The notes under the pieces were generated by a model. That model worked only from the letters and a program-made list of their open reading frames with translations. It searched no databases and was not told the DNA's origin. DNA of 64,000 nt from Yuukianura sp. NJ FZ-2021 (lineage: Eukaryota), in NCBI GenBank assembly GCA_046563655.1, contig JAJCTO010000012.1:186001-250000 (forward strand), given 5' to 3'. Position numbers and translations under genes: made by a program. Positions 3,415 through 30,317 of the stretch are shown piece after piece. Each line of letters starts with the position of its first letter. The stretch's first letter is position 1.

Positions 3415-3438
3415 ATGAGAAGTCGTCCATCATTCACC
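3396..3438 (+). promoter_or_regulatory. -1 programmed ribosomal frameshift signal (G_TTA_AAC + hairpin)
   Basis: GTTAAAC at 3396-3402 lies in the short gag/pol overlap (pol-frame stops at 3387 and 3390); 7-nt spacer; perfect 9-bp stem GGTGAATGA/TCATTCACC (3410-3418/3430-3438). Confidence 0.8.
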
Positions 3439-6853: not shown

Positions 6854-6913
6854 AACGTGCTCTGTTCAGTTGTTCTTATTTAGTTATTTGGAAGTCATTT
6901 CCTGACTTCCATC

Positions 6914-10598: not shown

Positions 10599-11134
10599 TG
10601 AGGGGTTGCAATGCCCCGACGACTGGCACACTGGCCACTCGAAATAAATGAGATGATGTGGGGCAGAGATCACGAGAGCTGTAAACGGATAATGAACTTT
10701 ATTTACAGTAATTAGGATAGAGTTTACGTTCTAATGAGAGCCAAATGTTGAATTGATGAAGTGTAGAGGTTGGTGGGGCTCGGTCCTGACAGGATTGACC
10801 AGGTACTGGTCCGGTGGGGCTTGTAGAGGTCACGTCCGTGTCACACAATAGATCCGGCGTGGTCCAGTGGCCAATCCAAGATGGAGGAGATGTGGAGAGA
10901 GACGGGACAAGATCCGGGCAGAGTGACGGTTGGAGTTGGACTGTTGTATGGACAGGAGTGGACTGGAGTGACGATGACGAGACGAGATGCATGTCCAAAT
11001 AGATGATGCAACTTCCCGGTTTTGGTGGTGAGGATATGGAGTTGTTGTTGTGCTGCTGCTGGAAGGACGAAGGGGGAGAAGAGGGGAAAGGGAACCAAAG
11101 TGGCTATAGTGGTTTGTGGGGAATAACCCCCACA
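10599..11134 (-). repeat. 3' LTR of element B (536 bp)
   Basis: Matches 33948-34508 apart from about 9 substitutions, a 24-bp indel and a 1-bp indel (counted by eye). Confidence 0.93.
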
Positions 11135-11186: not shown

Positions 11187-12407
11187 TTATTTTGGTGGAG
11201 CTGGAGGATCTCGGCGTTTTGGGGAATTCTTCCTTAGCGGAGGTGGAGCATTGGCCGAGTTCAATGCCCACCACCGAGCACGTCTCTGCTGCCGATTCGG
11301 AGCTGGTGGATTTGGTGGGACAGGGGGAAAACGTCCTTGTACAGGAGCTGGGGGAGCTGAGGAAGCTGAAGCTGCTGGAGCTGAAACTACTGGAGCTGGA
11401 ACTCCTGGAGCTGGGGTTAAATTTGAAGTTGGTGGGGAGTTGAAAGTGAAAGTAACCGAGGTTGCTGAATTTGGGAGAAGAGTGTAGTATGGGAAGTATC
11501 CAGGGGGAATTGATGAAAATGGGAATTGTGAAGTTGCAGAAGTGACAGGAACGGTAATTGAAGTGGAAGTGGACGGAATTTGTGAATTTGACCAAGTGGC
11601 TGGAGAAACTGGACGTGAATTTGGAGAAAGTGGCCGAATTTGGGGGGAAGCTGAGCGATTTCGGGGTGGAGCTGGACGAGCGTTGTACGGAGAGGGCCGA
11701 TTGGAACGGAATTGAGCTCGAACAGGGGGAACAGATTTTGACGAAGTGCTGGGTCCAGGGTTTTGGGGGTTTTGGGGGGTGCTTGGGGACAAGGAAACGT
11801 TTGACATTTTGCGTGTCAAAGCTGTAGGGGAGCTGGATCGCGAACGACCAACTGGGGGTTGTTTTGGGGGTCCATTTGGAAACTGCAAATCCAGAAGCGA
11901 GGGAATCTTCGCAGATCCAAGCCGCTGAGCCTGCAGTTTGGATTTTGGCGCTGGGTCACGAGGACGACGAAACGTGGCAGAATCTTGGGACTTGGGGGGA
12001 ACAACCACGACGACCGAAGCAAGTCTTGGGCGTGGTGCTGGAGGAGGAGCCGAAACCATGTCCTGGAGTGACTTTTGGGGGGAATTTGGTTGGAAGCTGC
12101 TAGAGCTTGGGGAAAACAACTGCCGATTGAGCTTTTTCGGAGATTTTGGAGGGGAAGCAGCAGCAAGGGGCATGTCCCAGTCGTCATCGGGAATCCGAGC
12201 AATGGCGGGCGTAGAAATTGGAGCAGCAATGACCGTAGGAGACGGAGACGAAGAGGATGACGAAGAGGATGAAGAAGACGGAGAAACAGCATTATTTTGA
12301 GGAGGAGAGTTCAACAAGTCATCTTCCGCAGCCAAATCGATCTCGGCGATTCCTTCAGAGGCATCATCTCCTTCGTCCATCATGTCATCATCGTGAGGGG
12401 GGTCCAT
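11187..12407 (-). CDS. ORF3 of element B: 406-aa Pro/Ser-rich, probably disordered protein of unknown function
   Basis: Long ORF between the integrase stop and the 3' LTR; ATG immediately preceded by a polypyrimidine tract + TAG acceptor; acidic N-terminus, basic C-terminus. Confidence 0.65.
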   Translation of the reverse strand: MDPPHDDDMMDEGDDASEGIAEIDLAAEDDLLNSPPQNNAVSPSSSSSSSSSSSPSPTVIAAPISTPAIARIPDDDWDMPLAAASPPKSPKKLNRQLFSPSSSSFQPNSPQKSLQDMVSAPPPAPRPRLASVVVVVPPKSQDSATFRRPRDPAPKSKLQAQRLGSAKIPSLLDLQFPNGPPKQPPVGRSRSSSPTALTRKMSNVSLSPSTPQNPQNPGPSTSSKSVPPVRAQFRSNRPSPYNARPAPPRNRSASPQIRPLSPNSRPVSPATWSNSQIPSTSTSITVPVTSATSQFPFSSIPPGYFPYYTLLPNSATSVTFTFNSPPTSNLTPAPGVPAPVVSAPAASASSAPPAPVQGRFPPVPPNPPAPNRQQRRARWWALNSANAPPPLRKNSPKRRDPPAPPK

Positions 12408-12451: not shown

Positions 12452-14728
12452 TCAGCGCTTCTTTGGCTTTGCGAGGCGGGAAATGCAAGACAGAGCTTTG
12501 GTGTGAGCCGCGCGTTTCGTACGACCAGAAATCGGAAGTTTGACGCTGGCAGGGGCGCAAACTATGGGGATTTTACTCGCAGCGGGATGCAGGGAATACT
12601 GGGCGGGTAAAATTGGTGGAATTAGGATTTCTGGGTCACGGCTTTGATTTTGGTTATTTAAGTCAACATTAGGGGGGTCAGAATTTTGGTTTGACGCAAT
12701 GGGAAGCGTAACAGGGTCATTTTGCTCAGTTGGAAATGGCAATTTTGGTAAGTTAGAGGACAAATCAGGGTCAGACACTGGAGGGGGGACAAAATCGTTA
12801 TCAGACGACTGAGAGGAACTACTGTCTGCATCAGACGTGTCATAAACACGCTGATTGTAAGGTTTAAGGCGCTGAACGTTCACGACTGTCTCGTGAGGCT
12901 GCCGAGGGGGGACCGAAGTAATTCGAACAGTGCCATTATGGAGGACGTCAATGACTTTGTAAGGGCCAATCCATTTCTTCGTAAATTTGCCGACACGACC
13001 TTTTTTCCGCTGAAAGTTCCTGAGCAGAACTTTCATACCAACGACATAAGTGGGGAAACGGATCTGTAACTGGGCCTTAACTCTGAGTAGCTGCTGCTCA
13101 CGGGACAGCTCGTGGGCTAAGTTATTTGCAACAAATAATCGGTCAAGGGCATCGTCGGGCTCTAAATATTGCTGGGGAAGGGGAAACAGCCTGTCTACCG
13201 GCAAAACCGGCTCCCTACCAAAGACCGGAAAATAAGGAGAAAAATTAGTGACACGATGTACTGAACAATTAATGGAAAATACCACCCTGGGGAGATGTAG
13301 ATCCCAATCCTTGTGGTTTTCACTTACGAATTTGGCGATTACTGACTTTACCGTGCCGTTATGTCTTTCACAGAGGCCGTTAGACTTGGGATTATACGAA
13401 GTCGTGGATCTGTGCTCAATGGCATGGAGGGAAAGGAAATCTTCAAATTCGTCGGAAAGGAAAACCGTACCACGGTCTGACAGAATGATTTTGGGAATTC
13501 CGTGGCGAAAAAGGACGTGTTTGTTAAGCACTTTGATCGCTTGAGCAGAATCTGCTGCGGGAACTGGCCAGGCTTCTACGTAACGGGTATGGAGATCAAT
13601 TACTGTCAGAATGTACTTGTTACGTCTCGTTGTGACTGGGAATGGGCCTAAGTAGTCTAGGGCAATGGTGTGGAATGGAATGGCGGGAACGTCAAGACCG
13701 GCGCTATTTGGCGGGAGAGCAAAATTCCGTCTATTATGGATCTGACACAAGTGGCACGACGTGACAAATTTCACCACATCTCGATACATCCGGGGCCAAT
13801 AGAACCTGGAGCGAAGAAGATGCCAAGACTTGTGTAAGCCGAGGTGGCTAAGGGAGTCGTTATGAACGGATTCCATGGACGATTTTCGGAGGGATTTAGG
13901 GAGACAGAGACGCCAGAGATTGCCAAATTCCGAGTAGTTCATCCGGTACAAAATTCCATCTCGCAGACTGTACTCTCGCAGTTTCTTGGGTTCGGGCAAA
14001 TTATGGGAAGCACAAGTTTGTTCTGCTGTCAAATACTCAATCACAGGAAGCCATTCTGGCTCTTTAAGCTGGAGATCTTTTAGTTTTGCATCTCTAACTC
14101 TTCGTGGGGATACAGGGGAAACCGCTAAGGCGAGAAGATGATGTTCAATGGCCAAATGGTCTGTGTCAGAGGGGGCTGGGTCAACTGGGTTACGCGATAG
14201 GGGATCAGCATCGGTGTGAACACGACCACTCTTATGAACCACGGTAAAATCATAAGGTTGGAGGGCTAAAGACCAACGGGAAATTTGGCCATAGGGGTCT
14301 TTAAATTTTAGCATGTCACAAAGGGAATGGTGTTCAGTGACAACTTTAAAATGACGGCCGTATAAATACGGTCGAAATTTCTCTACAGCCCAAACAAAAG
14401 CCTTCATTTCCAATTGGGGGGTTCCAAATTTCGATTCGGAGGGGGAAACCGCTCTAGAAGCATACGCTACCACTCTCTCTTTTCCGTCCTGAATTTGGCA
14501 AAGGGTCGCTCCAAAACCGAGCCCAGACGCATCACAATGCACGGACGTTTCGGCTTCTTCATCGGGGAACGCAAGGACAGGGGGAGATGTTAATTTGTCT
14601 TTAAGCGTCTGAAACGCTGTTTCGGCTTCCGGGGTCCAATGGAACGGGGTACCACGCTTCCCAGCAACAATAAGATGTAGTGGACGGGCAATTTCTGCAA
14701 AACCCTCGATAAATCGGCGATAGTAACT
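12452..14728 (-). pseudogene. pol: Pol of element B, 3' part (RT connection, RNase H, integrase)
   Basis: Resumes in frame after the element C insertion (SYYRRFIEGFAEIARPL..HCDASGLGFGA); HHCC, DYLGP, SDRG, GPY motifs. Confidence 0.92.
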
Positions 14729-15374
14729 TGTTACGCTCCTTTTTGCGCAATACCGTTGGAAGGGCCCTCTGGGTCAACGTCCGTCTAGCCAAAGGGGTCA
14801 AGGGCCTTAGGGACCCCCTTCCCGGTGAGAGTTCGTCCGTTGTCGTGTAAGGAGTAATAATTAGTAAGTGAATTAAATAAAGAAATGAGGTTTCCCATAC
14901 CTTCTTTCTATTCTTTCTGTGCTTATTTATTCGTAGTGGTGTATCGGGGTACTTAGTGGTGCTATTGGGTAGTCTTCTTCTCAGCTTCCGTCCTTTCTTA
15001 CTTCTAAATTGTGACTGAATGTTATTTATACAGAGGTGCTTAATTGCTTAATTAAGGTTGCTAGGTGGTCGTTAATTGGAAATTTGAATAACAACTTTTG
15101 CTTCCCTAACCGCATTAGCGGCGCTGGCTGTGGTTGTTCTAATTGGATAAATTTTCGATTTTAAATCACTTGGCCTTGTGGTCACTTGGCCTTGTGGTTT
15201 GTCCGCTCAGAAGGAGTTAGCCTGGTGCTTGGAGTGCTTAGTGACTAAGTCTACTTGGCAACTAGATGCGCTTAGCAACTAGGTAGTGCACGTGCGACCT
15301 TGGTCAGTGTTTTGTGGAAGTGAAAGTACAAGTGCAGGTACTGAAAGTATTGTTGTGCAAGTGCAGGTGCAACA
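14729..15374 (-). repeat. 3' LTR of element C (646 bp)
   Basis: Identical to 26979-27624 except one C/T difference seen (15269 vs 27519); purine-rich tract AGGCAGTGGAAAG immediately upstream on the - strand. Confidence 0.96.
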
Positions 15375-15432
15375 CTTTCCACTGCCTAATCTTTTTGTCG
15401 TCCCGACAAAACAAGTGTGTGAAGCTGATGAC

Positions 15433-16683
15433 TCATTCCCGGTTTGGTTGTCGTCGTTCGAGTTCCAGAAGCCTATCCTGCATATCCCGAACCTGGCGTA
15501 CTAAGTCGGGGATGAGGACATCGGGTGGTGGTAAGTCGCCGAGGGTGAGGTGTCGTTGAAGTGCAGTGGGGTATGGCGTCATTCGTCGGCTGGATATGGG
15601 AGTGGTGGATTCTGCGGCTCGTCGGCTCGGTGAGCGTATCTCTTCCACGAATTCGGGGCCAAACCAGACAAGTAACTGTGGAATGAGTTGGGACGCTCGG
15701 GCTTCGTCCATTCCGGGTGGTTTGGGTAACGTGGTAATTCGTCGGGACAGTCCTCTGATGAACTCGAGATTGGTACCGGTCTTCCATCGCATGTAGTCGG
15801 CAACGAAAAGTTGAGTGGGAACGTCCAAGACTCGAGCGACATAAATGATGCTGGCGCGAATGCGTGTATCACGATGGTCGGTTGGTAGGGTATTTGAAAA
15901 GAAGTGAGTTAGGCGAAACGGTTCTGCGGTTTGTTCATGGGTGGTCTCGAGCATGCTTTGTAACAGCGCTGGGATGTCGATTGATCCGATTGCGTAACCG
16001 TCCTGTAGGTACACGGTAATATCTTTCCACAGTTGAGCGATTGTCTCTGTGTGATCAACCATGCGAGGGTCGTCTTGTTGCATGCGGTGTTGGGGGAAGC
16101 CCGCCGGTATGGTGACCGTGGATTGGAAGTAGCTTCTCAAGGTTCGTGGCGCTGCATGGTCTGGCAAACCGAATATGTGGCAGCGGATAGTCTCTACGTC
16201 CAAGACACTGCGAGGGATGACTCCGAAATCTCGCTCAATCCACTGTTGTTGCTCCTTTCCGTTGTAGCAAATCTTCATTATCCGTGGTGATGCAAACAGA
16301 GTTTTCAACGGGCCATGCGTGTCTTCATCTCTGGGGTCCATGATAAAGGTTTTGTTCTTGGATACAATGACCAAACGGCAGATCGCTCCGATGTATGAGT
16401 GTGGCCATTCGAAACAGGCAAAGACAACTGGAGAGAGTTCGATTGCTTGTGAGACATGTGCCGTAACTTCTTCTTTCGTCTTCAAGACCGTGTAGTTAGA
16501 TGGAGGTAGGAGCCATCCTGGCGTCCAAAGTGAATCGTGCATACGAGTTTCGTCAATGTCCAGCACTTCCATCCGGTCTGGGCGTATCATTCGTGCTCCG
16601 TCCGTGAGGTTGCGCACTTGTGTTTGTGCGTACTTGAGTTGTGGGAGGTTCCGTGAGACTGAAGGTGCGATGTCGAATTCCAT
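15433..16683 (-). CDS. Divergent Rrp6/RNase D-like exonuclease-fold + HRDC-like protein, catalytic acidic residues apparently lost
   Basis: HSYIGAICRLVIVSKNKTFIMDP / LKTLFASPRIMKICYNG..QWIERDFGV..SVLDV parallel the Rrp6 ExoI-ExoII regions; VARVLDVPTQLFVAD parallels VAREMDVQPKEVIAD of ORF 6914-8122; splice acceptor + GCCATGG upstream. Confidence 0.65.
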   Translation of the reverse strand: MEFDIAPSVSRNLPQLKYAQTQVRNLTDGARMIRPDRMEVLDIDETRMHDSLWTPGWLLPPSNYTVLKTKEEVTAHVSQAIELSPVVFACFEWPHSYIGAICRLVIVSKNKTFIMDPRDEDTHGPLKTLFASPRIMKICYNGKEQQQWIERDFGVIPRSVLDVETIRCHIFGLPDHAAPRTLRSYFQSTVTIPAGFPQHRMQQDDPRMVDHTETIAQLWKDITVYLQDGYAIGSIDIPALLQSMLETTHEQTAEPFRLTHFFSNTLPTDHRDTRIRASIIYVARVLDVPTQLFVADYMRWKTGTNLEFIRGLSRRITTLPKPPGMDEARASQLIPQLLVWFGPEFVEEIRSPSRRAAESTTPISSRRMTPYPTALQRHLTLGDLPPPDVLIPDLVRQVRDMQDRLLELERRQPNRE

Positions 16684-16802
16684 GGCTAAGGAGTACCTGA
16701 GAAGGTGAAAATTAGATTAGACGTACAGTGTGCATGATTTGGTGTGCATCGTCAGGATCGTCATGAGTCAATTTCTGGGTGTGGGTTGGGTAGCGTTTGC
16801 GC

Positions 16803-19076
16803 TCAATAGTTATAGCCCGGTTCAGGATTTGTGCCGTTTCCCACATTTGTTTCGGCAAATGAGACTCGTCTGGCCTCAGAAAGAGGATAGTCGTAGTAAG
16901 CTTTCGGTGGGGTCTCTGGTTGTTGAGTGGCTTTATGGAGTTCGTTGATCGTCTCGTACTCCGTCTCGATCCGTTCAGCAAGGTTGGCTAGTGCACTGGT
17001 CCTAGGGAACTTCAAGTTCGTCAGTGGGTTGCGTTTCACGACAGGGCTGCTTCGCGTCAATTTGGCAGTTTGGGTGGCGGCTGCATAGGTGATCACCGGC
17101 TCTTCCTGCTGGGTGGCCTGGTTCCGTCGTCGCATGATGCAGTACCAGTACAGCGTGAATATTATGATGATGGTCATCAGAACCAGGGCTAAGGCGAAGT
17201 TGCTAGCATGGTGGTAGTCGACGTGGTCCGGTTGTGCCGCGGCTCCTCGTAGTCTGTCCAGGAACGGCAAGGCGAAGGTCAAGCCCGGGAAGGCTTGCAG
17301 TTGCTTGTAGAGTAGAAACCCTAGTCCCAAAGTGAGGCAGACATTCCAAATGATCAATGCCGTGTTAGTTGATGGCGGAATGATGTGCATCAACTTAGGC
17401 ACCATCATGGTCTTGAGTTGACTGATTTCGGTCAAGTTTAGTCGAGGTGCGTCGAGGTCCCAGGATTCGTTGAAGACTGATTTCAAGTTAGGGAAGACAG
17501 TTTGGCTTCCATAGTTCCAGTCGTGGGCTGGTTTGAGCATGATGTCGATCTTCGACATCATTGCTGGTATGACTATAGTGACTCGTGGTGCGTCCGCCAT
17601 GCCCGTGGGGCATGGATATGGTGGTCGAATTGTCCGTCGTCCTGGAACTTGTAGTTCGCAGTCGCAAGAGAGTCTGACTTCGAGGCTTCCAATCTGGTCG
17701 TTTGGTGGCTGCACGGGGTGAGTCCTGTTGTCCGAGATCCCGCGTTCTCCGCACTGGATCTGCATTCCTTCTGGGGCCCCAGTCAAGATAAATGTGTGGT
17801 AATCCAATTGGGTCACGCTGAAGTCTCCCGGTGTGTTGAGGCACTCGAACAGGCAAACCTCGTTGAGTTCTCTAACGCTAGCACCGCGTAAGAGCCGTTG
17901 GGCGCATAAGTATCCGGTCATCGGGTCGGAGCTGAACTGAGGCACATGGCAAAGTCCAGTTTCCGGGTGGCATTGCTGGAGTTGAGTCCCTTGAATCGTC
18001 ACTAGTTCTTCTTCGTTTACTGCCAAGTAGGCAGGGGCGTGCTGAACAATGCAGGTGCTGCCCTTGTAACTGAACGGCACGTTTATCATTTCGTATAGCT
18101 TCCAGTTGTCTACAAGCTTCTTGATGGGTACCCGAATGCGGTACATAATCCGTCCTCCGTCGCTGAAGGCGCAGTCGGTGAGCTTCAGTTTGTAATACCG
18201 TGTGACTTCGCCAACGGGTATTACGAGTCCGTAGCCATCGGCTAGTAGCTTCCGGCTGGCTTTTTGGAGGTCCGCTGCTAACCTAGTTGGTGGCACTGCT
18301 AGAATGGAAATCGTTTGGGCTCGGCAGTGGTCCTGTAGATCCTTGAAGCGCATTAGTTCTCCAATTTGGTTGAGATAGTCGAATACTTGGAGGAAGGTGC
18401 GTCTGGTGGAGTCTCCTTCTGCGGTTAGAAGACTCAACGTCCTTTGCACGCTTTCGTTGGTTTCTCGCATGGCGGCCTGCTCTTGGTAAAGACGGTTGAC
18501 ATGATCGTGTGCGCTTGAGAAGAGTTTGGAGACATTCTTTCCAAAAAGTTCCATTGAGGTCTTCATGTTCATCACATTTTGGTTGTTTATGACAACCGAG
18601 CCCTTAATGGCTTCCATAAACTTCTCAATGCTCTGGCCGTTCACTTGGAGGTCCTGCATGTCTCTTTTGGAGACGAATCCGCAACAAAAGCTGAACATGT
18701 CGCTGACTAAGGTGAGAGGGTTGAAGGACTGCCATGTGAGGTCTCGCTTCCTGCGTCCAGGGTTTACTTCTGTCATCATCATGTCATCCTTGATGGAGGC
18801 CAGCATCTTAGTGAGGTAGGTTGTGTAGGGTCGTATGTTCACTGGGAAGGTGCAACCTGCGGTTTGCGCGTTCCTGCATGTTCCTTCCATAAAATTTCCG
18901 ATAGGGTTGGTAAAGTTGACTTGGATGTCGTAGACCAAGGGAATTGTAGCAGTGTACAGCTCCGTACCTTTGACCTCCCGAACGAGAGATCCTGTGGTGA
19001 CCCTTACTTCGGTGGGTTGAATTGAGAACGCATTGGTTCCTTCGAGGATGGTTACCAGTATAACCAGCAACTCCAT
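16803..19076 (-). CDS. env: Envelope / class I fusion glycoprotein (errantivirus Env / baculovirus F-like)
   Basis: Signal peptide MELLVILVTILEGTNA, furin site RRKR followed by a hydrophobic fusion-peptide-like segment, heptad region, Cys-rich ectodomain, N-glycosylation sequons, C-terminal TM segments; located after pol. Confidence 0.85.
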   Translation of the reverse strand: MELLVILVTILEGTNAFSIQPTEVRVTTGSLVREVKGTELYTATIPLVYDIQVNFTNPIGNFMEGTCRNAQTAGCTFPVNIRPYTTYLTKMLASIKDDMMMTEVNPGRRKRDLTWQSFNPLTLVSDMFSFCCGFVSKRDMQDLQVNGQSIEKFMEAIKGSVVINNQNVMNMKTSMELFGKNVSKLFSSAHDHVNRLYQEQAAMRETNESVQRTLSLLTAEGDSTRRTFLQVFDYLNQIGELMRFKDLQDHCRAQTISILAVPPTRLAADLQKASRKLLADGYGLVIPVGEVTRYYKLKLTDCAFSDGGRIMYRIRVPIKKLVDNWKLYEMINVPFSYKGSTCIVQHAPAYLAVNEEELVTIQGTQLQQCHPETGLCHVPQFSSDPMTGYLCAQRLLRGASVRELNEVCLFECLNTPGDFSVTQLDYHTFILTGAPEGMQIQCGERGISDNRTHPVQPPNDQIGSLEVRLSCDCELQVPGRRTIRPPYPCPTGMADAPRVTIVIPAMMSKIDIMLKPAHDWNYGSQTVFPNLKSVFNESWDLDAPRLNLTEISQLKTMMVPKLMHIIPPSTNTALIIWNVCLTLGLGFLLYKQLQAFPGLTFALPFLDRLRGAAAQPDHVDYHHASNFALALVLMTIIIIFTLYWYCIMRRRNQATQQEEPVITYAAATQTAKLTRSSPVVKRNPLTNLKFPRTSALANLAERIETEYETINELHKATQQPETPPKAYYDYPLSEARRVSFAETNVGNGTNPEPGYNY

Positions 19077-19110
19077 TCTGAAGATAGAAGATTTAGGGTT
19101 AGAACTTACG

Positions 19111-22100
19111 CTAAGTAAACCGTGCAGGTTTACGAATTTGTCGCCCTGCGCGTGTGACATAGGGCGTTTGTGACCTTTTGGTCTCATCTATGTCGGCCTT
19201 GTCGACCTTTGTGTCGACCTTCTCCTCTTCCGAGGACTCACTACTGCTCTCGCAACTGTCCTCGCTAGTCGAGGTTGCGGTAGAGCTACTGTCATTCTTT
19301 TCGTCGTCAGAAGTCAGAGGCGACGATGACGTAGGTATTGTAAAGTTTTGAAGCACTGGAGGCGGAGCATTGCCTTCCCCAACTTGAGTCGCTGCTACTC
19401 CCGGAGCAGCTTCAGAGGTCGCAAATTCGAGTAGTGATTCGGAGTATGGCTTAAGATGATCGATGTGGGCCCGAACATGAGGCGCGTCGGGATCGGCGCG
19501 TGGCACGCACCAGTACGAGAGTGGAGAGTGTTTCTTGGTGATGACGTAAGGTCCACGGTATCGCATCGCAAGTTTGCGAGAAGTACCGGGTGCTGGTTTG
19601 TGAACCTTGATGAGTACAAGGTCCCCTTCATTGTATTCGAAATCCCGTCGGCCGACGTTAAAGAGTTTGCATTGGCGTTGTTGGCTCTGTTGGAGACCTT
19701 TGCGTGCCGCGTCTCGTGCTTCCTGCATTCGCCGAATGCGCGTCGGGATGTCGGTGGATAGTCGGACTGTGTCGTACACGATGTCAAGAGGGTGATAGGG
19801 ATGACGACCGTAAAGGATATAATAGCTGCTATATCCAGTAGAGTCCTTGTGCACTGCAGTGTTGAGTGCAAAAACGGCGGATCCAAGATATTTGTCCCAG
19901 TTGCGCTGGTTCGACGAAACGTAGTTGGTGAGGATTTCTTCAATGCTACGGTTGTTCCGTTCCACCAGCCCATTAGTCCTGCTGTGGTATGGCGATGAAT
20001 AGACGTTGGTCGTCCCGATCAGGGAGTTGAATTGTTTGAAGAACGAAGCGGTGAATGTAGAGGCGTTATCCGTAAGGATCGTTTTGAAGACGCCGTGAAT
20101 TTGGATGATTTCCATAAGGAAATCTAGCATCGTTTTTGTAGTATTGTGGCGTATGGCCTTCGCGTAGACGTATCGTGAGAGGAACTCGACTAGGACGACA
20201 ATGTACTTATTTCTCGACTTTGTAGAGGGCAGGGGCCCGATGACATCTACACTGACTCGGTCGAAGAGGTCGCCGACAGGGATGGGTGACAACAGTCCGG
20301 CGGGGTGTGTGTTCCGGACTCGGCGCTTCTGACAGCTGGCACAGTTCCGTACCTACTCGGTTATAAGCGCGTCGAGCCTGAACGCGAATATGCTGTTCCG
20401 AGCCCTGGCAAGGGTTCGGGCGACGCCTAGATGACCCATGAGTACGTCGTCGTGAAAACGAGGTAGAACGGAGTGCATCATGTGCTTCGGAATTACAGGA
20501 AGGTTGGTCTTCGTTAGTTTGCACTTGTACTGTAGGAGGCCGTCGTCTACAGTAAAGCGTTTGTGGAGCTTGCTCCTAGCGTTTGTAGCGAGAATAGCTA
20601 AGATTTTCTGGAGCTTCTCGTCGTTTTGTTGTTGTTGCATGAGCTCGGTACGCGAATCTATCGGGGTAACAAATTGCATTGCGTACCAGTGTACTGGGAA
20701 CTCATCAGTAAATGTCGCAGCGTGATCCTCCACAGGGAAACGTGAGAGGCAGTCTGCTTGAACGTGGGTTTTCCCATTGACGTGCTTTATGGTGTAGTCC
20801 ACGTCTTGGAGTCGTAAAGCCCAACGTGCCAGGCGCGAGTTGCGCAAGTTCCTGCACGTCTTGAGGTAGCAGAGGGCGTGATGATCGACCACAATCGTAA
20901 AGGCTTTGAATCCAATATACTCTCGAAATTTTTCGATTCCCCACAGGACGGCTAGGCATTCTTGTTCACTGGTGTTGTAGCGCTCCTCAGCGCCACGGTA
21001 GGTGCGGCTGGCGTAAGCCACCACGCGTAAAGTGTCTCCCTCTCGTTGGTGGAGTATGGCGGCAATGCCCTTGTTTGACGCGTCTGTGTGTAGCTCGAGT
21101 TCTGCATTCTCATTAAAGAATGCGAGGATGGGTGCGGAAACCAAACATTGGCGAAGAGAATCGAAGGCTCCCTGTTCTTGGTCGCCCCATTGAAAAGCTA
21201 CGGTACTTTTCGTGAGCTCAGTCAGTGGTTTCGCAATTTGGCTGTAGTTCTTGATGAAGCGACGGTAATATCCAGTACAGCCAAGGAACGTCCGAACTTC
21301 GTGAACGTTGGTGGGAGGTCGCATCTCCGTGATGGCCTTAACTTTGTCAGGGTTGACGGCAACACCATCCCCCGTAATTATGTGTCCAAGAAGGGCTAAT
21401 TTCGTCTGCCCGAAATAGCATTTCGGGGGTTGAAGAGTAAGGTTGTAAGCACGAAACTGTCGGAAGACATTTTCCAAGTTGGCCAAATGTGACTGAAAAT
21501 CCTTGGCGAAGACGCATACGTCGTCAAGGTATGCAGTACAAATGGAGTGAATCCGCGTTCCAAGAACTGTCTTCATAAATGCGCTAAAGGCAGCTGGAGC
21601 GCAAGTTAAGCCGAATCCCATGTAGAGGTGTTCGTAAGCGCCAGCATGAGTCACAAAGCTCGTCTTTTCTACGTCGTCCGGATGAATCGGTATTTGGAAG
21701 TAGCCGGACATCAGATCCAGACAAGAGAAGTACTTGGCACCATTCAAGGAGGCCAATAGTTCAGAAATTACTGGCATAGGCCAGTTGATGGTTTTGGTGA
21801 CGAAGTTGAGTTTTCTCCAGTCAATGACCATCCGATACTTGTCACTGTTCGGTTTCTTAACTAAAGAAACTCCAGCGGCCCAAGGGGAGCGGCTTTCTCG
21901 AATAATTCCTGCTTGTAGAAGTTTGTCAACTTCTTCTTCAATTATTTTCTTCTCGGCCGGGCTTTTCTTGTAAGGTGGGCAGCTTACTGGTAGTGCGTCG
22001 CCAGTGTCGATACGGAAAGTTATATCTTTGGCTTTACCAAGTTGGTCCAAATTCCACGCGAAGATGTCGCCGTATTCTAAAATGAGAGCGCGGAGTTGCG

Positions 22101-23063
22101 CTTGTTCGTCGGGGCTTAAGTCTGGATTTATTTGAAGTTGGGCAATATTTTCCCGGGTTGATTCCTGTCGTTGTCGGCGGATTTCCTCCTCTGGTTCCGT
22201 TTCTCGAACCAAAACACGGTAGATATTCCCGACGTTGACTCCGCGGTACAACTTGACAGCGACTGGACGCGGATTATCTATGGGGATTTCGAAGTCTCCT
22301 CCTGCGACATGAGCGAGTCCTGGGGCACAAAGGCCTAACTTGTCGAGGGCTTGACTATTCGGTTCGAAAGCGAGTATTCCTCGGAGCTGGTCAACTGGAA
22401 AGACCTTGATGAGCGTAGTCGAGAATGGTGGCAGCATTGTTTCCTCAACTGTAAGAACTTTTGGCATCGAGGGACCATGAACCTGGGTAGCGTGAACTTG
22501 TTCGCGTTGCATTGTGTTTAGACTCAGTCCAAGTGCTGCTGGGGTACGTAGGTTGAATCCTCGCGGTACCTTCATACCTAGGAACTGGAAAGTTCCATGT
22601 TCCAGCGACTTCGAATACTTCAATTGCAGTTCATGTTCCAATGTAAAGTCATTCCCGAGGATATGTCCGCCAGGACATAAAACTTATGCGTTAGCAGAGT
22701 GGTTGACTTGCGGGAGAATGTGACTTGCCGATAGACGTAACCGAGTACCGTGACCTTCGACCCGTTTGGAAGGTCGAGAGCTGATGAAGAGTCTATGGGC
22801 CTGATTTCGTCCGAGGTGACATTGTTGAGCCGAATTATGCTGACTGGGCATCCCGTGTCAAGGAGACACGAGCATCGTTTGAGTTTTGAGTCTCGTGACA
22901 AAAATATGCTAATTATGAGATTGCCGACTGGATCCGTACTACTAGGGTCTCCTGGAAAAGCTGTATTGCGGGTCATCATAGCTAGAATTGGTCGTGTTGG
23001 ATTAGAGGGTTTAGCGTTTGAGTGGGCTTCAGACCTCTCTACTGTCGCCGCGCTGCGTTTCCC
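19111..23063 (-). pseudogene. pol: Pol of element C (PR-RT-RH-IN) with a frameshift near 22670 and an in-frame TAG at 20353-20355
   Basis: PR LLDTGC and HILGNDF lie in different frames; RT YLDD; RH HTDASNKG; TAG between the HH and CC of the integrase zinc finger with both sides in the same frame; DVIGP, TDNA, GPY. Confidence 0.92.
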
Positions 23064-24508
23064 TGAGCCGTTACGGTTCGTCCTGCCGTTGGAGCTGAAG
23101 CTACAGCTTCGGAAGAGTTGCCTCTGTGTTCCGGTTGTCGCCGGGGGCAATCGAACGTAAGGTGTTCTCCGTCACATTGAGCGCAGCGAGGGTCCCGAAT
23201 AGTGTTCCTCAGATATGATTGGTAGCGAGAGCACTCCGCTCGCCGGTGTTCCGGTGATCCACACTCGAAGCATCCACGGAACGTAGGGCGGTCTTGCCAT
23301 GGTCGCCATGGGCGACCGTTGCTGCGCTGTCCAGAGCTGTATGGATTGGTTCCCTGAGATTGACGTGGTTGATCGCGATTGTACCCGTGGCCTGCTTTGC
23401 CCCATGCTGGGCGCCGTTTCACCGTGCGTCGCTCCACAGCTTGTGGTTCCGCTGGTGCTTCCAAGTTCATGTTGTTGAAACGTGCAGTCAATCGGGGTAG
23501 ATCGGTGCCTGCCCGTTTCCGCTTCATCATGAAGTCGTAGTTCTCCTTTTCGATAAGAAACTGCGTCACATCTTGCGGCGTCTTCGGTTGACGTAGGAAT
23601 ATCTCGTGACTGACATCTGCTGGCAACCCCTTGAGCAGGAAGTTGACCCGCTTTTCGTCCTTCATGGTGGTCCCTTGGCTTTTGTCCAACTGGTCACATA
23701 GTCGCAGCACCTTGCCGCAGTAGTCTTCCACGCTCTCTTTTGGATTTCTCTTCCGTTGAGCCAAGCGGTATTCCAATTCTTCTTCAGTTAGCCGTGACTT
23801 GAAGCTAGTGTGGAATCCCTCCTTTAGGGTCTTCCACGGAAGGGCGACAACGTCGCCGTTGGCATCTCGATTGGCTGGGTCACGCTCCCAGTCAGTGCGA
23901 AAGTTCAAGAACCAAGTCTTCGCGTAGCCCTTGAGGTAAAGCGGCAGATGGCGCACTTTCGCAGCCTCGTCCCAACGTTGATTAACAGCTATTGCCTTGA
24001 AAGTCTCCCAGAAATTCCTGGCTGGGTAACCTCGCTTCCCTTCGAATGTTGAATCGCCCGGTGGTGTCCAAACGGATACCACAACACTCGGTGCGGGAGT
24101 CGTCAGCATAACAGGCTGCTGAGGTCCCGGAGTAGGTGGCGTGCCTGTGCCTCCTGGCGTTCCAGATGCTTGTGGCTGTCCACCACCGGTTAGATTCACA
24201 ACTGGGACTATTGAGCTTGGCCCACCAGCTCCTGCTGGCGGCGTCGGTGGGGTAGTCGTTGCGGGCACCGGAAAAGTGAACGCGCTCCCGGTCCCTCCGG
24301 CGGGTCCTGTTGTCCCGCCCGTTTGGCCCGTTGCGGGGCTAACGACAGGGTCGTTAGGGCTTGTCGCCGCACCGGCTCCTGCCGTGGGCGTCTTCGGTCG
24401 TTGCCGATCCCGTTCTTTTGCCTCCTTCAGTATTGCGGAGAGGTCCGCAGGTCCGTACGTTGGTGGAGTCCCGTCCTGCCGGGTGTGTCGATGAGCTGGA
24501 TCCGACAT
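23039..24508 (-). CDS. gag: Gag of element C
   Basis: Capsid-like LYLKGYAKTWF...ESVEDY; knuckles CFECGSPEHRRAEC and CAQCDGEHLTFDC. Confidence 0.92.
   Translation of the reverse strand: MSDPAHRHTRQDGTPPTYGPADLSAILKEAKERDRQRPKTPTAGAGAATSPNDPVVSPATGQTGGTTGPAGGTGSAFTFPVPATTTPPTPPAGAGGPSSIVPVVNLTGGGQPQASGTPGGTGTPPTPGPQQPVMLTTPAPSVVVSVWTPPGDSTFEGKRGYPARNFWETFKAIAVNQRWDEAAKVRHLPLYLKGYAKTWFLNFRTDWERDPANRDANGDVVALPWKTLKEGFHTSFKSRLTEEELEYRLAQRKRNPKESVEDYCGKVLRLCDQLDKSQGTTMKDEKRVNFLLKGLPADVSHEIFLRQPKTPQDVTQFLIEKENYDFMMKRKRAGTDLPRLTARFNNMNLEAPAEPQAVERRTVKRRPAWGKAGHGYNRDQPRQSQGTNPYSSGQRSNGRPWRPWQDRPTFRGCFECGSPEHRRAECSRYQSYLRNTIRDPRCAQCDGEHLTFDCPRRQPEHRGNSSEAVASAPTAGRTVTAQGNAARRQ
23057..23063 (-). promoter_or_regulatory. 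-1 frameshift slippery site G_GGA_AAC (gag to pol, element C)
   Basis: Canonical heptamer 5 codons before the gag stop; the -1 frame leads into the protease. Confidence 0.75.
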
Positions 24509-25929
24509 GGTTTACTTCGTCTTCTTCTTCTTCTTCTGAAAGGATCAGATGATTAGTTGTATTTGGTCCCCTAGGGCGTGGGATGATGTAGGGTCGAGGG
24601 TTGGACAACTTCCTCCCTCGGCATTTGCAGAAAAATGAAATAGCTATTGCCCCCATGCCGGCTAGTAACCCTACTATGAAACCGCGCATGAAGGTGTCGG
24701 GGTTGAATATGTCGGACATAAGGTGGGCAGTTTGACAGTCTACCCCCAGTTGAAGATATGCGTATAGGGACTTGTCCATGAGTAGCTTGTTTTCCCGGGT
24801 TATCAGCTGGACCCGGCCTTTCTCGTAAGTGTAAACGCCTCGTTCCGTGTCCCGAATACCGACAAGGCGTAGATCTCGTAGGTGAGGGTAGGGCATGTAG
24901 ATGTCGGGCTCGTCCCATAAGGTTTGTATCATGCCCTTCTCTAGGTATAGCGGCCTCCATCCAGTAGTCAGCTTGATCCAAAGGGTGTGTTCTGATGGGA
25001 AGTACCCCAAAACTGGGTATGTAATGCCAAAGATACTTCGGTGCTTGAGTCCTGGTGTGATTAGGTGGCCGTCTGATGAATATACTCCGATTTGGTCGTC
25101 AACCATAACATAGAGGTAACTCGCGACGCCGACTGTGAAGTTGATTCGGCCGTCCGGCGGGAAGTCCTCGAAGAAATCGGCATTCTGCACTGGAGTAGGA
25201 AGTAGTGTCCCAGCTCCTGTAACTTTAACGTGACTTTTCCCGTGGAACAAGAGGTGGTCCCCATTGAGGTATCCAACATGATCGTACCACAGGGTACTCA
25301 GGCCTCGGATGTTTTCTCCATCCGGCCCTTCGTCGAAGAATCCTGGTGGGTACAGGACTTTCAGTGCTTCTTCGTCGGGAACTCTTTTCCGTAACGTGCG
25401 GCCAGAACTGGTACCATGCTGTCATCACAGATCCTATGGCACGAGTGTGTGGCAAGGCCAAGGCGTGGCCTATTTCGTGTAGGAGTACCGAAAATAGATT
25501 GACGTGTTCGTCGTCTTCTCCGAGAGACCAAGTCTCGTTTGCGTCTAGGTGGATTTGTCCGCCCATAACTGATCCTGGATAGTGGGGGTGGGCTAGTGTG
25601 CCTCCGCGTCCGTCACTGGCGTCATCATGAATTTCGTGTTCGAAAGTGATGGGGATGTCAGCACTGCCTTCTACGTAAGTAAAGGTGAAGTTGGAATAGC
25701 GTTGCCACTTCACAAACGCCAGACTGGCGTCTGCCAGTGCTTCTTCTCGGTCCATATCATATGGAGTAGGTCCAAGGGTCCAGGTAAGGTCCCTCTTGGT
25801 CCACCGGTGAGGGTTCACCGGACTTCGTCGAGTTCGTGTCGCCGGTGCCCACGGGCACATCATCGTTCCGGCGACCTCTGCAGCAAGCGTCGCTCCGACG
25901 CAAAATACAAGGAGCATCCGTGGAGTCAT
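24354..25929 (-). pseudogene. Membrane-type matrix metalloproteinase-like gene (signal peptide, furin site, M10A catalytic domain, hemopexin-like repeats, TM), single frameshift near 25385
   Basis: RTRR|..RWTKRDLTW, DGRGGTLAH, GQIHLDANETW, HEIGHALALPH (25447-25479), Met-turn GSVMTAWY; the +1 frame continues PDEEALKVLY..WYDHVGYLNGDHLLFHGK..FIVGLLAGMGAIAISFF. Confidence 0.85.
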
Positions 25930-26958
25930 ACCGTCCAGGTATCCTGTAACAGGGTTGAACCGCCAAGGTTCGGTAATTTGTTTCATTGCTTCGTTTGTAG
26001 CCTCGTTGTGTTTCGCTCCTCGGGGTATGCGACAGGTGTCGAAGAAAAACCTCTGTCCTACGTCATCGCCTCTCTCGAGTGGTCGCGACTCCACCCTCAA
26101 AGCGACTTCGATTACTTGCGCTAAATGGGCAGCTGTAGGGTCTGGGACCTCAACATTCTACAGCCCGGTCAAAATTTACACCGTTGCCGAGGTGACGGCC
26201 CACCGTCCCTCAACCCGTTCCTTCACGGAATATTTCTAGACGTTCGGTTTCATCTACGCCAAGCGCGGAGAGCAGTGAATCTTCTATACAAGTCGTTAAT
26301 ACGCCAGCCAGCTACCCAACTGGCTGGGGAAGAAAGTAACGTCGAAAGAGAAGTGACGGAAGGAGTTTCCTACTCCCCCTTCAATTGTGAGAACAATACC
26401 GCCAACCGTGTATAAGTCAAACTGATGGCTACCGCAGTAACCTATGACCTTTGGCTAGAGCCACAGCCCTATACGGTGACCTTTGACCTGAGGCAGAGCG
26501 TGTGTGACAACAATAGAGGACTTTCACCTCAGCGAGGGTCACCTTCTCTATTGTGTCTGTTCGATGCCTGTGAGTACTTGGTCACCAGGGGGGGATAGCA
26601 CTGGTCGCGGTCACTTACGTAGTAGGTAGCTTCGTAGAAATCAGCTTGACTTGTTCGTTGGTTGCCCCAGGGTAGTTGCCCTAGGAGCCCTTTAATACTT
26701 AAATCTAAACTTTATTAGATGTTTGTACGTTATTGTCTTCACATTACGTTATTGTCTTTAAGTTACGTTATTGTCCTAAGTTACTGACTACGTTATAATT
26801 TCGCGCACGCATTCATTCGATACGTTAAATTACGTTAACAGCTGCATTAAAGGTTGCGGTATTGTAGTAACAATAGTCTTGCCTGAACAAAAAGCGCAAG
26901 AAAGAAAAGCAAACAGCGGCAGAGGCGGGAACCTCTTATTGTTTTAAAAGAAATTGCC

Positions 26959-26976
26959 ATCTCGGCAAATGCACCA
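26959..26976 (-). promoter_or_regulatory. PBS of element C, tRNA-Gly(GCC)-like
   Basis: TGGTGCATTTGCCGAGAT 2 nt after the 5' LTR; resembles the complement of the tRNA-Gly(GCC) 3' end (TGGTGCATTGGCCGGGAA). Confidence 0.65.
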
Positions 26977-26978
26977 TT

Positions 26979-27624
26979 TGTTACGCTCCTTTTTGCGCAA
27001 TACCGTTGGAAGGGCCCTCTGGGTCAACGTCCGTCTAGCCAAAGGGGTCAAGGGCCTTAGGGACCCCCTTCCCGGTGAGAGTTCGTCCGTTGTCGTGTAA
27101 GGAGTAATAATTAGTAAGTGAATTAAATAAAGAAATGAGGTTTCCCATACCTTCTTTCTATTCTTTCTGTGCTTATTTATTCGTAGTGGTGTATCGGGGT
27201 ACTTAGTGGTGCTATTGGGTAGTCTTCTTCTCAGCTTCCGTCCTTTCTTACTTCTAAATTGTGACTGAATGTTATTTATACAGAGGTGCTTAATTGCTTA
27301 ATTAAGGTTGCTAGGTGGTCGTTAATTGGAAATTTGAATAACAACTTTTGCTTCCCTAACCGCATTAGCGGCGCTGGCTGTGGTTGTTCTAATTGGATAA
27401 ATTTTCGATTTTAAATCACTTGGCCTTGTGGTCACTTGGCCTTGTGGTTTGTCCGCTCAGAAGGAGTTAGCCTGGTGCTTGGAGTGCTTAGTGACTAAGT
27501 CTACTTGGCAACTAGATGTGCTTAGCAACTAGGTAGTGCACGTGCGACCTTGGTCAGTGTTTTGTGGAAGTGAAAGTACAAGTGCAGGTACTGAAAGTAT
27601 TGTTGTGCAAGTGCAGGTGCAACA
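26979..27624 (-). repeat. 5' LTR of element C (646 bp)
   Basis: Direct repeat of 14729-15374, followed by the PBS on the - strand. Confidence 0.96.
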
Positions 27625-30317
27625 AACTGCAAAGACCAATGAAGGAACGGACACCTCTAACAGTCGTGGGAACGGGGAATTCACGAACTGCTTTTGTTTT
27701 GTTGGGGTCAACTGCAATTCCATCTCTGGAAACAATATGGCCAAGGAATTTCAGAAAATCTTCGCCAAAGTTGCACTTTTTGGGTTTAAGACTCAGACCA
27801 GCTCTTCTAAGGGCACAAAAAATTTGGGCTAAGTGATCCAAATGATCTCCAAAAGTTCGGGAGTAGCAAACCACATCGTCTAAATAAACGAGTGCTATGG
27901 ACCACTTTAAACGGCCTAAGACATTGTCAATTAGGCGTTGCCACGTCGCTGGTGCGTTTGTTAGACCAAAGGGCATTACAACGAACTCATATTGTCCGTC
28001 GGGGGTAACAAAACTGGTCTTTTCTCGGTCCTCAGGCTCCACCTCAACCTGGTAATACGCTTGATCACAATCCATGGAGGAAAAATACTTGGCGCCATTA
28101 AGTCTGTCTAGGGTATCATCAATTCGGGGGAGGGGGTAAGAATCTTTCCGAGTCACTGCGTTGACTTTACGAAAGTCAACACAAAACCGCCAACTTTCGT
28201 CGGGCTTTTTGACCAGAAGGACTGGGGAACACCAAGGGCTATCGCTCGGAGTAATAGCATTGAGATTCAAAAGACGCTCGACTTGGTTTTGAATTTCCCT
28301 CCGCTCAGTAAATCCAGTTCTGTGGGGATGGGAAGCAATCGGTTTAGCAGAACCTGTGTCGATTTTGTGGGTGGTTAGGTGAGTACGGCCAAGGGTAGCG
28401 GGATCAAAATTGAAAACATCCAAATTTGCGACAAGAAAATCTTGCATAATTTGGCGCTGTTCAGGGGTTAGGGAATTTGAAATCTGGAACGCCTCGATCC
28501 TCTTTTGCAGTTTCAGTGTTGCTATTTCAGCGTCATCATTAACCGAAAGTCCTAAGATCTCGTGCGCTGGGAGGGAAGATTGGGAGGATTTAGAGCTAAC
28601 ATGGTCGAATTCATCAAGGTCACAGAGTACTGAAGACTCTGCGAAGGGTTCGAAGGTGCCAATAGAGACGTTTTGAAGAAGTTTCACAGGGCGGTCACTC
28701 AAATTCCACAAGAACGTAACTCCACAACCATCTTTAAGCGTAGAAATAGAATTCCCAATGGCAATATGCTTCGCGTGTTGGAGCTCACGACGAGGGGAAA
28801 CCAAAATATCTCCTGTGAAAGGTAAATCAGTTTTTACGCTGACTCGCTTCATCGTTCTTGGGTTAATGAGGATTGACCTGGCCAGTCTCAGGCACGGAGG
28901 GGGAGTGGAATTTTGAGATAAATTCGAATTGCTCACGAAGGACGCTTCGGAGTCAAGTAGAGAAGGGGAATTTGAAGTATTTTGGGACTGGGATGAATTC
29001 TGAGCCATGTCATTAGCTAGAGTGTTGTGATTTTCGGGAATGGCCGTACATTTGGGAGGGATCGACTCTGGTTCTGCTTCCGAAGACTTTGGGATACTGG
29101 GGCTATCAGAAACTTCTTCAGTTTCTGACAAAGTTAATTTGTTAAGGACAGGGACTTGGGACTTTGGGATACAGACATACTCATTTCTGAGGTCTGTACA
29201 CGGGAGTTCACCTTTTACAAGGCGCTCATTCGCGGGATCCAAAAGAAAATTTTGGGAACGGAGGAAATCTGAGCCCATTTGAAAGGTGCTGGAAGATGTA
29301 AAATGGGTATTGGAAGGAGACGCCAGCAATTGAGAAAGTGATCATTGTAGTTTGGGGGGAACCACAACGAACGTAAGAACCAAAAGAAAGTTTGACACGA
29401 ACAGGTTGAACATCAACCGCTTGGGAAACAATATTGGGGAACCTCCTTAGAAAATCAGGGTGGACACAACAAAGAGAAGCACCTGTATCACACAGGACTC
29501 GAAGAGTCGTAGAACCAAAGACAACATTGGTGTGGAAAGTAGAATGGGGGGTGGAGTCAATTCCAGAAATGAACTTTGCAGCTGAGATTCCCGAAGGAAA
29601 CTCGGAATCATGGCTTGGGGACTTAGGTGGGGAATCAAAATCGAAAGAAGTGGGATCTGGAACTTTGGAATTTGCAGCTGAGAACTCAGGAGCCGAATAA
29701 TTTACCCAGTCAGCGACTCGGCTTACATTGGAGGGGCTAATGCCAAATTTGGAAGTGACAGAAACGGCTAGTGGGTTTGGTTGAGTAGGGCCACACACAA
29801 ATTCAGAAGGGCAAGGTTCGGAAGGGCCAACCCAAACAGAAACAAACTTTGGTACTGCAGCAGTAGGTTGAGTAGAGGGAAGAACAGAAGTAGTAGTAGC
29901 GGCGGTTGTAGTTGTAGGTCCCAGAAGGGAAGAAATGTGAGTAGCGGCGGAGTTACGAAGAGAAGTAGGGACTGTAGGAACTGCAGCGTCAGAACAAAAG
30001 TTTGGGAAAGTTGTAGTAACCTCCCCAACGACCAAAGGTGAAATAGGCTGGGGGTTTGATTTAGGACAAGTTCGGTGGTGGTCAAAAAGAGCTTGTAGTT
30101 TGAAAAGAAACTCTTCTGGAATGATTGGAATTTTAGAATTGTGCTTCCTGCCAAAAGCTGAACAATTCTTGTGGGTATGAAATTTAGGTTGTTTGATTTT
30201 TCGGAATTTGGGACGTGTTGGACAAACCCTGGGTGGGGCTTGTATCTTAATTTGAGAGACTGGATTGGGTGGTAATAGAAGCTGTCGTCCCTGCAACGGC
30301 AGCTCTATTGGTTTTCC
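27625..30317 (-). pseudogene. pol: Pol of element B, 5' part (S/T/P-rich spacer, protease, RT), frameshift near 29280-29300, interrupted by element C
   Basis: PR LCDTGAS in 29226-30401; GSDFL, WRFCVDFRKVN and YLDD in 27554-29329. Confidence 0.9.
30280..30317 (-). promoter_or_regulatory. -1 frameshift signal G_GAA_AAC + hairpin (gag to pol, element B)
   Basis: GGAAAAC at 30317-30311 just before the gag stop; downstream stem AGCTG(C)CGT/ACG(A)CAGCT. Confidence 0.6.

Follow-up and report, generated by a model that had tools for sequence, protein, structure and literature searches.

Architecture of the element

The element described here lies on contig JAJCTO010000012.1 of the Yuukianura sp. NJ FZ-2021 assembly (GCA_046563655.1), within a stretch of 64,000 nucleotides (positions 186,001 to 250,000 of the forward strand) that was analysed as a whole and is referred to below as the window; coordinates are positions in the window. 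It is a long terminal repeat (LTR) retroelement that encodes, in addition to gag, pol and env, a matrix metalloproteinase (MMP) and an exonuclease-like protein (Table 1). The long open reading frames (ORFs) enclosed by the LTR pair are all encoded by the minus strand, and on the element strand they follow the order MMP, gag, pol with protease (PR), reverse transcriptase (RT), RNase H (RH) and integrase (IN), env, and exonuclease-like ORF. The Ty3/gypsy type of LTR element is recognized in the paired LTRs with TG..CA ends, the short target-site duplication (TSD), the primer-binding site (PBS) and polypurine tract (PPT) adjoining the LTRs, the pol domain order PR-RT-RH-IN and the position of gag upstream of pol. 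The PBS may correspond to the 3' end of a tRNA-Gly. A full-length alignment of the two LTR copies shows a single difference (645 of 646 positions identical). The LTR pair is the one direct-repeat family in 13500-29000, and a repeat search of this interval found no extra repeats or TSDs around the MMP or the exonuclease-like ORF. The sequence-only reading of this locus, with five co-oriented genes between 646-bp LTRs together with PBS, PPT-like tract and TSD, is thus correct in anatomy and coordinates.

Insertion as a single unit and other copies of the family

Evidence from other copies was obtained from contigs of three sequencing runs (X1, X2 and X3) of one sample, which were aligned to 13200-29200. 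In each run, all 30 of 30 depth bins were covered. An empty site was found in all three runs, as a joint from 14724 to 27625 that skips 12,900 bases and has four letters common to both sides; the bases removed are exactly the 12,896 of the element plus one copy of the TSD. This joint represents an older element, the outer element described below, without the insertion, and confirms that the focal element was inserted as a single unit with a 4-bp duplication.

The focal family has many diverged copies, since the 593 pieces from X1, counted over the whole of 13200-29200 with the outer-element flanks included, are spread over likeness classes of at least 99% (207 pieces), 95-99% (219) and 90-95% (167). 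Diverged contigs bridge the boundaries of the additional genes: the MMP-gag junction (record 20, 23842-25798, with 72 differences), the stretch from MMP through the leader into the LTR (record 21, 25835-27026) and the env-exonuclease junction (record 3, 16262-16965). Because of the empty site and these bridging contigs, the five genes are considered to move as one family-wide unit. The earlier proposal of transposition as one 12.9-kb unit is therefore borne out by the LTR pair, the TSD, the empty site and the contigs bridging LTR-MMP, MMP-gag and env-exonuclease, and the same contigs place the MMP and exonuclease-like ORFs in other copies as well.

A second joint, from 16990 to 25766, is present in contigs of X1 and X3; it skips 8,775 bases and has 28 unrelated letters between its two sides. 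It is an internally deleted derivative that keeps the LTR, the leader, the start of MMP, the end of env and the exonuclease-like ORF, and it may be a non-autonomous form. The leader (25987-26958) varies among copies by several skips of 62-98 bases and by small insertions and deletions.

Lesions of the window copy

The window copy is defective at three places: MMP is frameshifted, 13 bases are missing where PR joins RT, and IN contains a stop codon. Its MMP gene is split over two overlapping frames (25986-25225 and 25421-24354), with the break near 25383-25385. The X1 and X2 contigs that cover this break are two bases longer, which by frame arithmetic places both segments in one frame. The PR (23171-22620) and RT (22683-20356) segments are also in different frames in the window copy; at this break (~22657), every covering contig in each of the three runs has 13 additional bases, such that PR and RT form one frame. 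At the place aligned to the IN stop, a related metagenome contig (L001, described below) reads through. The window copy itself is dead. The sequence-only reading took the element to be infectious; because of the three lesions, the ORFs of this copy are not all open, and it is not an intact infectious element.

Table 1. Features of the focal element and its neighbours, in window coordinates.
Feature	Position	Strand	Remarks
Whole LTR element	14729-27624	minus	12,896 bp
TSD, left copy (AACT)	14725-14728	none	Read from sequence; contig joint with 4 common letters
TSD, right copy (AACT)	27625-27628	none	Read from sequence; contig joint
3' LTR	14729-15374	minus	646 bp, TG..CA ends
5' LTR	26979-27624	minus	646 bp, TG..CA ends
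Purine-rich tract (PPT-like)	15375-15386	minus	Abuts the 3' LTR, upstream on the element strand; read from sequence
PBS	26959-26976	minus	18 nt, starts with TGG, two bases past the 5' LTR
Leader, PBS to MMP start codon	25987-26958	minus	~970 nt
MMP, N-terminal segment	25225-25986	minus	Signal-like stretch, RTRR site, matrixin catalytic domain with HEIGHALALPH
MMP, C-terminal segment	24354-25421	minus	355-aa open frame: end of catalytic domain, hemopexin-lead region, anchor, tail
gag ORF	23039-24508	minus	489 aa; Retrotrans_gag, Ty3_capsid; CCHC-type knuckle visible in sequence
GGGAAAC heptamer, candidate -1 frameshift site	23057-23063	minus	Within the gag/PR overlap
PR segment	22620-23171	minus	D-T-G motif visible
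RT, RH and start of IN zinc finger	20356-22683	minus	776-aa open frame; RVT_1, RT_RNaseH, Integrase_H2C2
In-frame stop codon in the IN H2C2 zinc-finger region	20353-20355	minus	Lesion of the window copy; read from sequence
IN core and C-terminal segment	19111-20352	minus	rve, SH3_Tf2-1
env ORF	16803-19187	minus	794 aa; signal-like stretch, RRKR site, C-terminal hydrophobic segments
Exonuclease-like ORF	15433-16683	minus	416 aa with the first ATG as start; open frame between stops begins at 16716
Outer gypsy element	10599-34508 excluding 14729-27624	minus	LTR pair and pol domains
Element A (gypsy-type)	1759-8122	plus	gag with zinc knuckle, PR-RT, RH-IN, 3' exonuclease ORF
Element A 3' ORF, Rrp6-like	6884-8122	plus	412 aa; DNA_pol_A_exo1 5.9e-27, weak HRDC match

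The matrix metalloproteinase gene

The MMP ORF is 1.6 kb long, and its tail overlaps the gag start codon by ~150 nt. Its catalytic domain is matched by Peptidase_M10 (PF00413) with 120.7 bits, against a Pfam cut-off of 24, and contains the matrixin zinc site HExxHxxxxxH, as HEIGHALALPH, together with the Met-turn. The closest proteins to the catalytic segment, at 35% identity, are two MMP-24/MMP-14-like proteins of octocorals (P0002 and P0003, 500 and 458 aa), which carry PG-binding, matrixin and hemopexin domains. In an alignment with these, the structural metal-site residues (zinc and calcium motifs), HEIGHALALPH and the Met-turn are all kept, and the basic RTRR site aligns with the furin-type RRRKR of the cellular proteins. 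A pro-domain with the PRCGxPD cysteine switch is absent: PG_binding_1 gave no match, and the octocoral alignment shows a lone cysteine before RTRR. A hydrophobic, signal-like stretch occupies residues 24-44.

In the second frame, the end of the catalytic domain is followed by ~230 residues without a Pfam match, for which there are two leads to a hemopexin region: a weak BLASTP alignment with the hemopexin region of P0002 (E 0.28), and an Atlas match to MMP-16 hemopexin and a membrane-type MMP (MT-MMP) tail (0.84), which is a lead only. A hydrophobic anchor at residues 243-267 of this segment precedes an acidic tail. The predicted layout is that of an MT-MMP encoded without interruption, in which the hemopexin-like region is putative. 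The most economical origin would be capture from a host mRNA.

The exonuclease-like gene

The protein encoded at the 3' end of the element was matched by the Pfam family DNA_pol_A_exo1 at 22.8 bits, just below the cut-off of 23.6, and neither HRDC nor PMC2NT was matched by Pfam in this ORF. Among 1.84 billion representatives searched exhaustively with HMMER, 10 matched at E<=1e-3 (best 1.6e-5), none of them closer than 33% identity; DNA_pol_A_exo1 is present in nine of the 10, HRDC in eight and PMC2NT, which marks Rrp6 proper, in four. Of 14 PDB sequence matches at E<=1, 13 are Rrp6/EXOSC10 and one is RNase D.

The structure predicted from an alignment with these relatives has a mean predicted local distance difference test (pLDDT) score of 63.9. 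In Foldseek, its top matches are Rrp6 cores (E 3.5e-8), and RNase D is also found, as are Egalitarian (E 7.5e-6) and Exd1 (E 9e-6). The template modelling (TM) score with the Nibbler EXO domain, by target, is 0.70. An Atlas match to 'Exd1 homolog' (0.87) is likewise a lead only. The EXO domain starts after ~60 residues, and in the model the helical region that follows it aligns along the EXO+HRDC cores of Rrp6 over 340-360 columns, with a high root-mean-square deviation.

In both MAFFT and HMMER alignments, the Asp and Glu of ExoI and the Asp of ExoII are replaced or gapped. The Tyr and Asp of ExoIII also appear replaced, in a part where the alignment is less secure. The Rrp6-typical QW..RDFG motif is kept beside the replaced residues. 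Judged by sequence and predicted fold, the protein is an Rrp6/RNase D relative with at least three of the five DEDD-Y residues replaced, i.e. a putative pseudo-exonuclease, and because its catalytic residues are lost it cannot work as a nuclease. Of the Rrp6-like exonuclease originally proposed, the kinship thus stands, on PDB sequence matches and Foldseek Rrp6 cores, and the enzymatic activity does not.

The closest relative, P0005, is a 168-aa metagenome protein of 29% identity on a 9,075-bp contig, and shows the same loss of ExoI residues; apparently degenerate Rrp6-like ORFs of this type exist elsewhere. A metagenome scan with the exonuclease-like ORF yielded 56 pattern matches, none of which was confirmed, and scans of viral contigs with the env, exonuclease-like and MMP sequences found nothing.

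The gag, pol and env genes

The gag and PR frames overlap by 133 nt. The GGGAAAC heptamer in this overlap is in register with the gag frame, as determined from the position of the gag stop, and would provide the candidate slippery site of a conventional -1 frameshift layout. The PR segment has no Pfam match. A search with pol returned 439 proteins at E<=0.001; among the matches listed, all contain RVT_1 and RT_RNaseH and most also contain rve, and their source names include 'transposon opus' and 'Gypsy retrotransposon integrase-like'. By sequence similarity, the RT is assigned to the Ty3/gypsy RTs.

The env ORF contains hydrophobic segments at residues 38-56, 608-628 and 658-686 and an RRKR furin-type site followed by a hydrophobic segment. 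A signal sequence, a furin-type site with a hydrophobic peptide and a C-terminal membrane anchor make up the layout of an errantivirus-type env. Three metagenome proteins are 39-46% identical to it, and two of their contigs were examined. One of these, L001, encodes a pol that is 62% identical over RT/RH and 54% over IN, followed by an env at 46%; the contig starts inside RT and is therefore without information on MMP.

In a FastTree phylogeny of 50 pol sequences, in which all support values are local and a set of named references is absent, the focal element and L001 form a sister pair with a support of 100. This pair groups neither with an aphid pol that is fused to Baculo_F (P0097), nor with the outer element, nor with the element at 1759-8122. 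The focal pol thus falls outside the insect errantivirus clade, in what is a weak test with one insect representative (P0097). The element is upheld as an env-carrying Ty3/gypsy unit, in which env follows pol and has a furin-type site and anchor; the F-type match of env is below threshold, and the pol does not group with that of the aphid.

Genomic surroundings

The focal element interrupts the pol of another gypsy element, the outer element, between RT and RH; the RT of the latter is in 27554-29341 and its RH and IN are in 12452-14773. The LTRs of the outer element (10599-11134 and 33948-34508) are 94% alike, and it is therefore the older of the two. Its 3' ORF (11187-12407; 406 aa, Pro/Ser-rich, without a family match) was considered as a third exonuclease-like gene and rejected as low-complexity and unrelated.

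A third retroelement, element A, also carries an Rrp6-like ORF at its 3' end. This ORF keeps all five DEDD-Y residues and matches yeast Rrp6 at E 1.9e-28 over EXO+HRDC, and it is ~17-18% identical to the focal exonuclease-like ORF. The pol of element A is not close to the focal pol, and the two are not sisters in the pol tree. No LTR pair was found around element A, where the search returned satellite matches alone.

The retroelements are surrounded by a satellite array of 262/544-bp units that fills 1-1300, 8200-10700 and 34700-64000, with a 300-nt reference matching 81-82 times at identities of 60-100%. In 34700-64000, none of the ORFs of at least 120 aa resembles a host gene. The array suggests a heterochromatic or pericentromeric region.

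Comparison with known elements and proteins

Ty3/gypsy elements with F- or gB-type env have been reported across metazoans, including cnidarians, as 'ancient errantiviruses' (Chary & Hayashi, eLife 2026, PMC13524379). As far as their published description goes, the focal element resembles them in the order LTR, gag, pol, env, in an env with furin-type site and C-terminal anchor, in multi-copy, near-identical insertions, and in its separation from the insect errantivirus clade (here, of the focal pol from one aphid pol); it differs from them in its two extra genes and in a sub-threshold match of env to the F family. The main text of that article contains no mention of metalloproteinase, matrixin, MMP, exonuclease or accessory genes, and in the seven supplements searched, metallo-, exonuclease, matrixin and 'additional ORF' are likewise absent. 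A search of the supplements for peptide motifs also returned nothing, from files that may not contain sequences.

An exonuclease-like gene in an LTR element, in contrast, has a precedent. A DEDDy-type exonuclease is encoded by ORF3 of the LTR retrotransposons Juno and Vesta of bdelloid rotifers (Rodriguez, Kenefick & Arkhipova 2017, PMC5408684); according to that article, these ORF3s were acquired at least twice, are shared with Athena elements, and have a function that is not known. DEDDy ORF3s of LTR retrotransposons are also mentioned in PMC6338049. In both Juno/Vesta and the focal element, as far as the published descriptions allow a comparison, an ORF of the RNase D/Rrp6 class lies beyond pol, at the 3' end of the LTR element, and a single genome has DEDDy-type ORFs in LTR lineages that are unrelated to each other (here, element A and the focal element). 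In the bdelloid ORFs, however, the catalytic residues are described as kept (DEDD to DEED) and the ORF replaces env (PMC5408684), whereas the focal ORF has lost these residues and stands beside a full env; the likeness is one of position, drawn from descriptions.

Within the Rrp6/RNase D-like fold, Exd1 and Egalitarian, both among the fold matches, share with the focal protein the loss of the active site. The focal ORF lacks specific sequence kinship to them, and its best sequence matches are Rrp6/EXOSC10.

The MMP has in common with cellular MT-MMPs (MMP-14/16/24-like) the matrixin motifs for zinc and calcium, a basic site of the furin type, and an anchor with tail at the C-terminus. It differs from them in its low identity (35%), in lacking a PG-binding pro-domain, a recognizable cysteine switch and a Pfam hemopexin match, and in being encoded uninterrupted inside a retroelement, upstream of gag. 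Among viruses of insects, large DNA viruses such as betabaculoviruses carry MMPs and enhancins thought to breach extracellular barriers, in addition to F-type fusion proteins; metalloproteinases of that type are secreted and are likened to the focal MMP by description only. In protein searches and the viral-contig scan, the nearest relatives of the focal MMP are cellular, not viral. The open-access full text searched contained no precedent for a retroelement-borne MMP, and neither did the articles listed on gene capture by invertebrate endogenous retroviruses (ERVs). What is new in this element is the MMP; the Rrp6-derived ORF adds to a theme that is rare but already known.

Interpretation

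In structural and evolutionary terms, the results are best explained by a recently active, multi-copy, env-carrying Ty3/gypsy ERV whose family genome consists of gag-pol-env plus an MMP and a pseudo-exonuclease, a reading to which we assign a probability of roughly 0.72. Several results weigh against it. All three runs were made on a single sample, possibly the one behind the assembly, and thus do not provide independent evidence; their contigs give neither a copy number nor proof of any single fully open copy; at the MMP break, a more diverged X3 contig lists one of the two extra bases. The Baculo_F match of env (22.9 bits) is below the cut-off of 24.1 and is seen in one of four env family members, and an hhalign comparison of env with the aphid Baculo_F-bearing protein was not significant, aligning the furin site and fusion-peptide stretch alone. 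The hemopexin region of MMP is a lead only, with no Pfam match at E<=10, and protein searches and the viral-contig scan found no MMP-bearing relative in the databases. The exonuclease-like model derives from aligned Rrp6 homologues and leans towards an Rrp6 fold, so that it is supporting and not independent evidence; a single-sequence model failed (pLDDT 36.5). In L001, a relative with a pol of 62% identity, no exonuclease-like ORF is recognizable in the 754 bp after env, and the gene is therefore not universal in the lineage. Finally, the listed contig variants include 16 well-supported substitutions within ORFs, a sample far too small for a test, in which all six in the core genes are synonymous, as against four of seven in the exonuclease-like ORF and one of four in MMP (the substitution at 24479, in the gag/MMP overlap, was scored in both frames and is non-synonymous in that of MMP). 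This may indicate a weaker constraint on the accessory genes than on the core.

Such a difference would be expected if the two extra ORFs were passengers, i.e. host mRNA fragments joined by template switching in one recent sublineage, which have no role and are decaying. We regard this as unlikely. The frameshift in the window copy of MMP fits decay, but in X1 and X2 contigs the gene has a single frame, and it keeps every metal-binding motif, the signal, the furin site and the anchor. Non-synonymous changes make up three of four MMP variants, three of seven in the exonuclease-like ORF and none of six in the core, in line with a passenger. Loss of the exonuclease active site and the lack of this ORF after env in L001 also agree with a passenger; however, the ORF is open over 416 aa, its end is still kept by the internally deleted derivative (16990 to 25766), and its identity to any cellular Rrp6 is at most 33%, which therefore argues for long residence rather than a recent pick-up. 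That no other MMP-bearing retroelement was found in databases or the open-access literature fits this reading as well; that copies differing by up to 5-10% still cover both ORFs speaks against it. Far less probable is that the five-gene arrangement is an artefact of assembly or nesting, in which MMP or the exonuclease-like gene would derive from a separate insertion or a mis-joined contig. The region is highly repetitive, with nested elements in a satellite array, and the sole read evidence is from one sample, possibly that of the assembly. Nevertheless, the single direct-repeat family in 13500-29000 and the absence there of extra repeats or TSDs at either ORF, the separately built contigs of diverged copies across LTR-leader-MMP, MMP-gag and env-exonuclease, the removal of exactly the element and one TSD copy at the empty site, the overlap of the MMP ORF with the start of gag and the common strand of all genes speak against it.

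With regard to function, we infer roles in crossing the extracellular matrix and in countering RNA surveillance from sequence, as was done in the sequence-only reading. On producer cells or particles, the MMP would be present as a membrane-anchored protease activated by furin, and it is possible, at a tentative level, that it loosens the matrix so that enveloped particles reach new cells. Somewhat more doubtful is the suggestion that the pseudo-exonuclease acts as an RNA-binding or decoy protein, which might shield or route element RNA or compete with the host Rrp6/exosome. Both accessory proteins could instead act inside the cell, a proposal of low probability. The MMP would then, without degrading matrix, process Env, Gag or a surface receptor of the host, the last leading to superinfection exclusion or shedding, and the pseudo-exonuclease would serve, like Egalitarian or Exd1, as an adaptor for packaging or transport of genomic RNA. 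A membrane-anchored MMP with a cytoplasmic tail should indeed stay on membranes that also hold Env, but Env has a furin-type site of its own and so needs no extra protease; similarly, the catalytically inactive Egalitarian and Exd1 are among the Foldseek matches (E 7.5e-6 and 9e-6) and 'Exd1 homolog' is the Atlas lead (0.87), yet these matches share the general DEDD fold and do not single out an adaptor role.

The most far-reaching form of the extracellular proposal, which we also hold to be improbable, is that of a 'complex' invertebrate retrovirus in which both extra genes are adaptations for spread, the MMP acting with Env and the pseudo-enzyme on RNA. A furin-activated, membrane-anchored MMP displayed with Env would open the matrix for particles, which would thus leave somatic producer cells and reach those of the germline or stem cells, and the Rrp6-derived pseudo-enzyme would bind element RNA, or partners in the exosome or piRNA pathways, and thereby protect or route the genomic RNA. 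If this were true, the Rrp6-derived ORFs in two unrelated gypsy lineages would represent a recurrent, selectable counter-measure of retroelements.

It is only recently that gypsy elements with env have been catalogued in animals other than insects, and their descriptions list three genes. The Rrp6-derived ORF extends the observation of DEDDy ORF3s in bdelloids to another host, with a dead form beside an intact form in the same genome, and this co-occurrence suggests that retroelements have recruited an RNA-surveillance protein more than once. The MMP, if complete, would be the first retroelement-borne MMP found, and would offer a handle on how such elements exit tissues and enter the germline.

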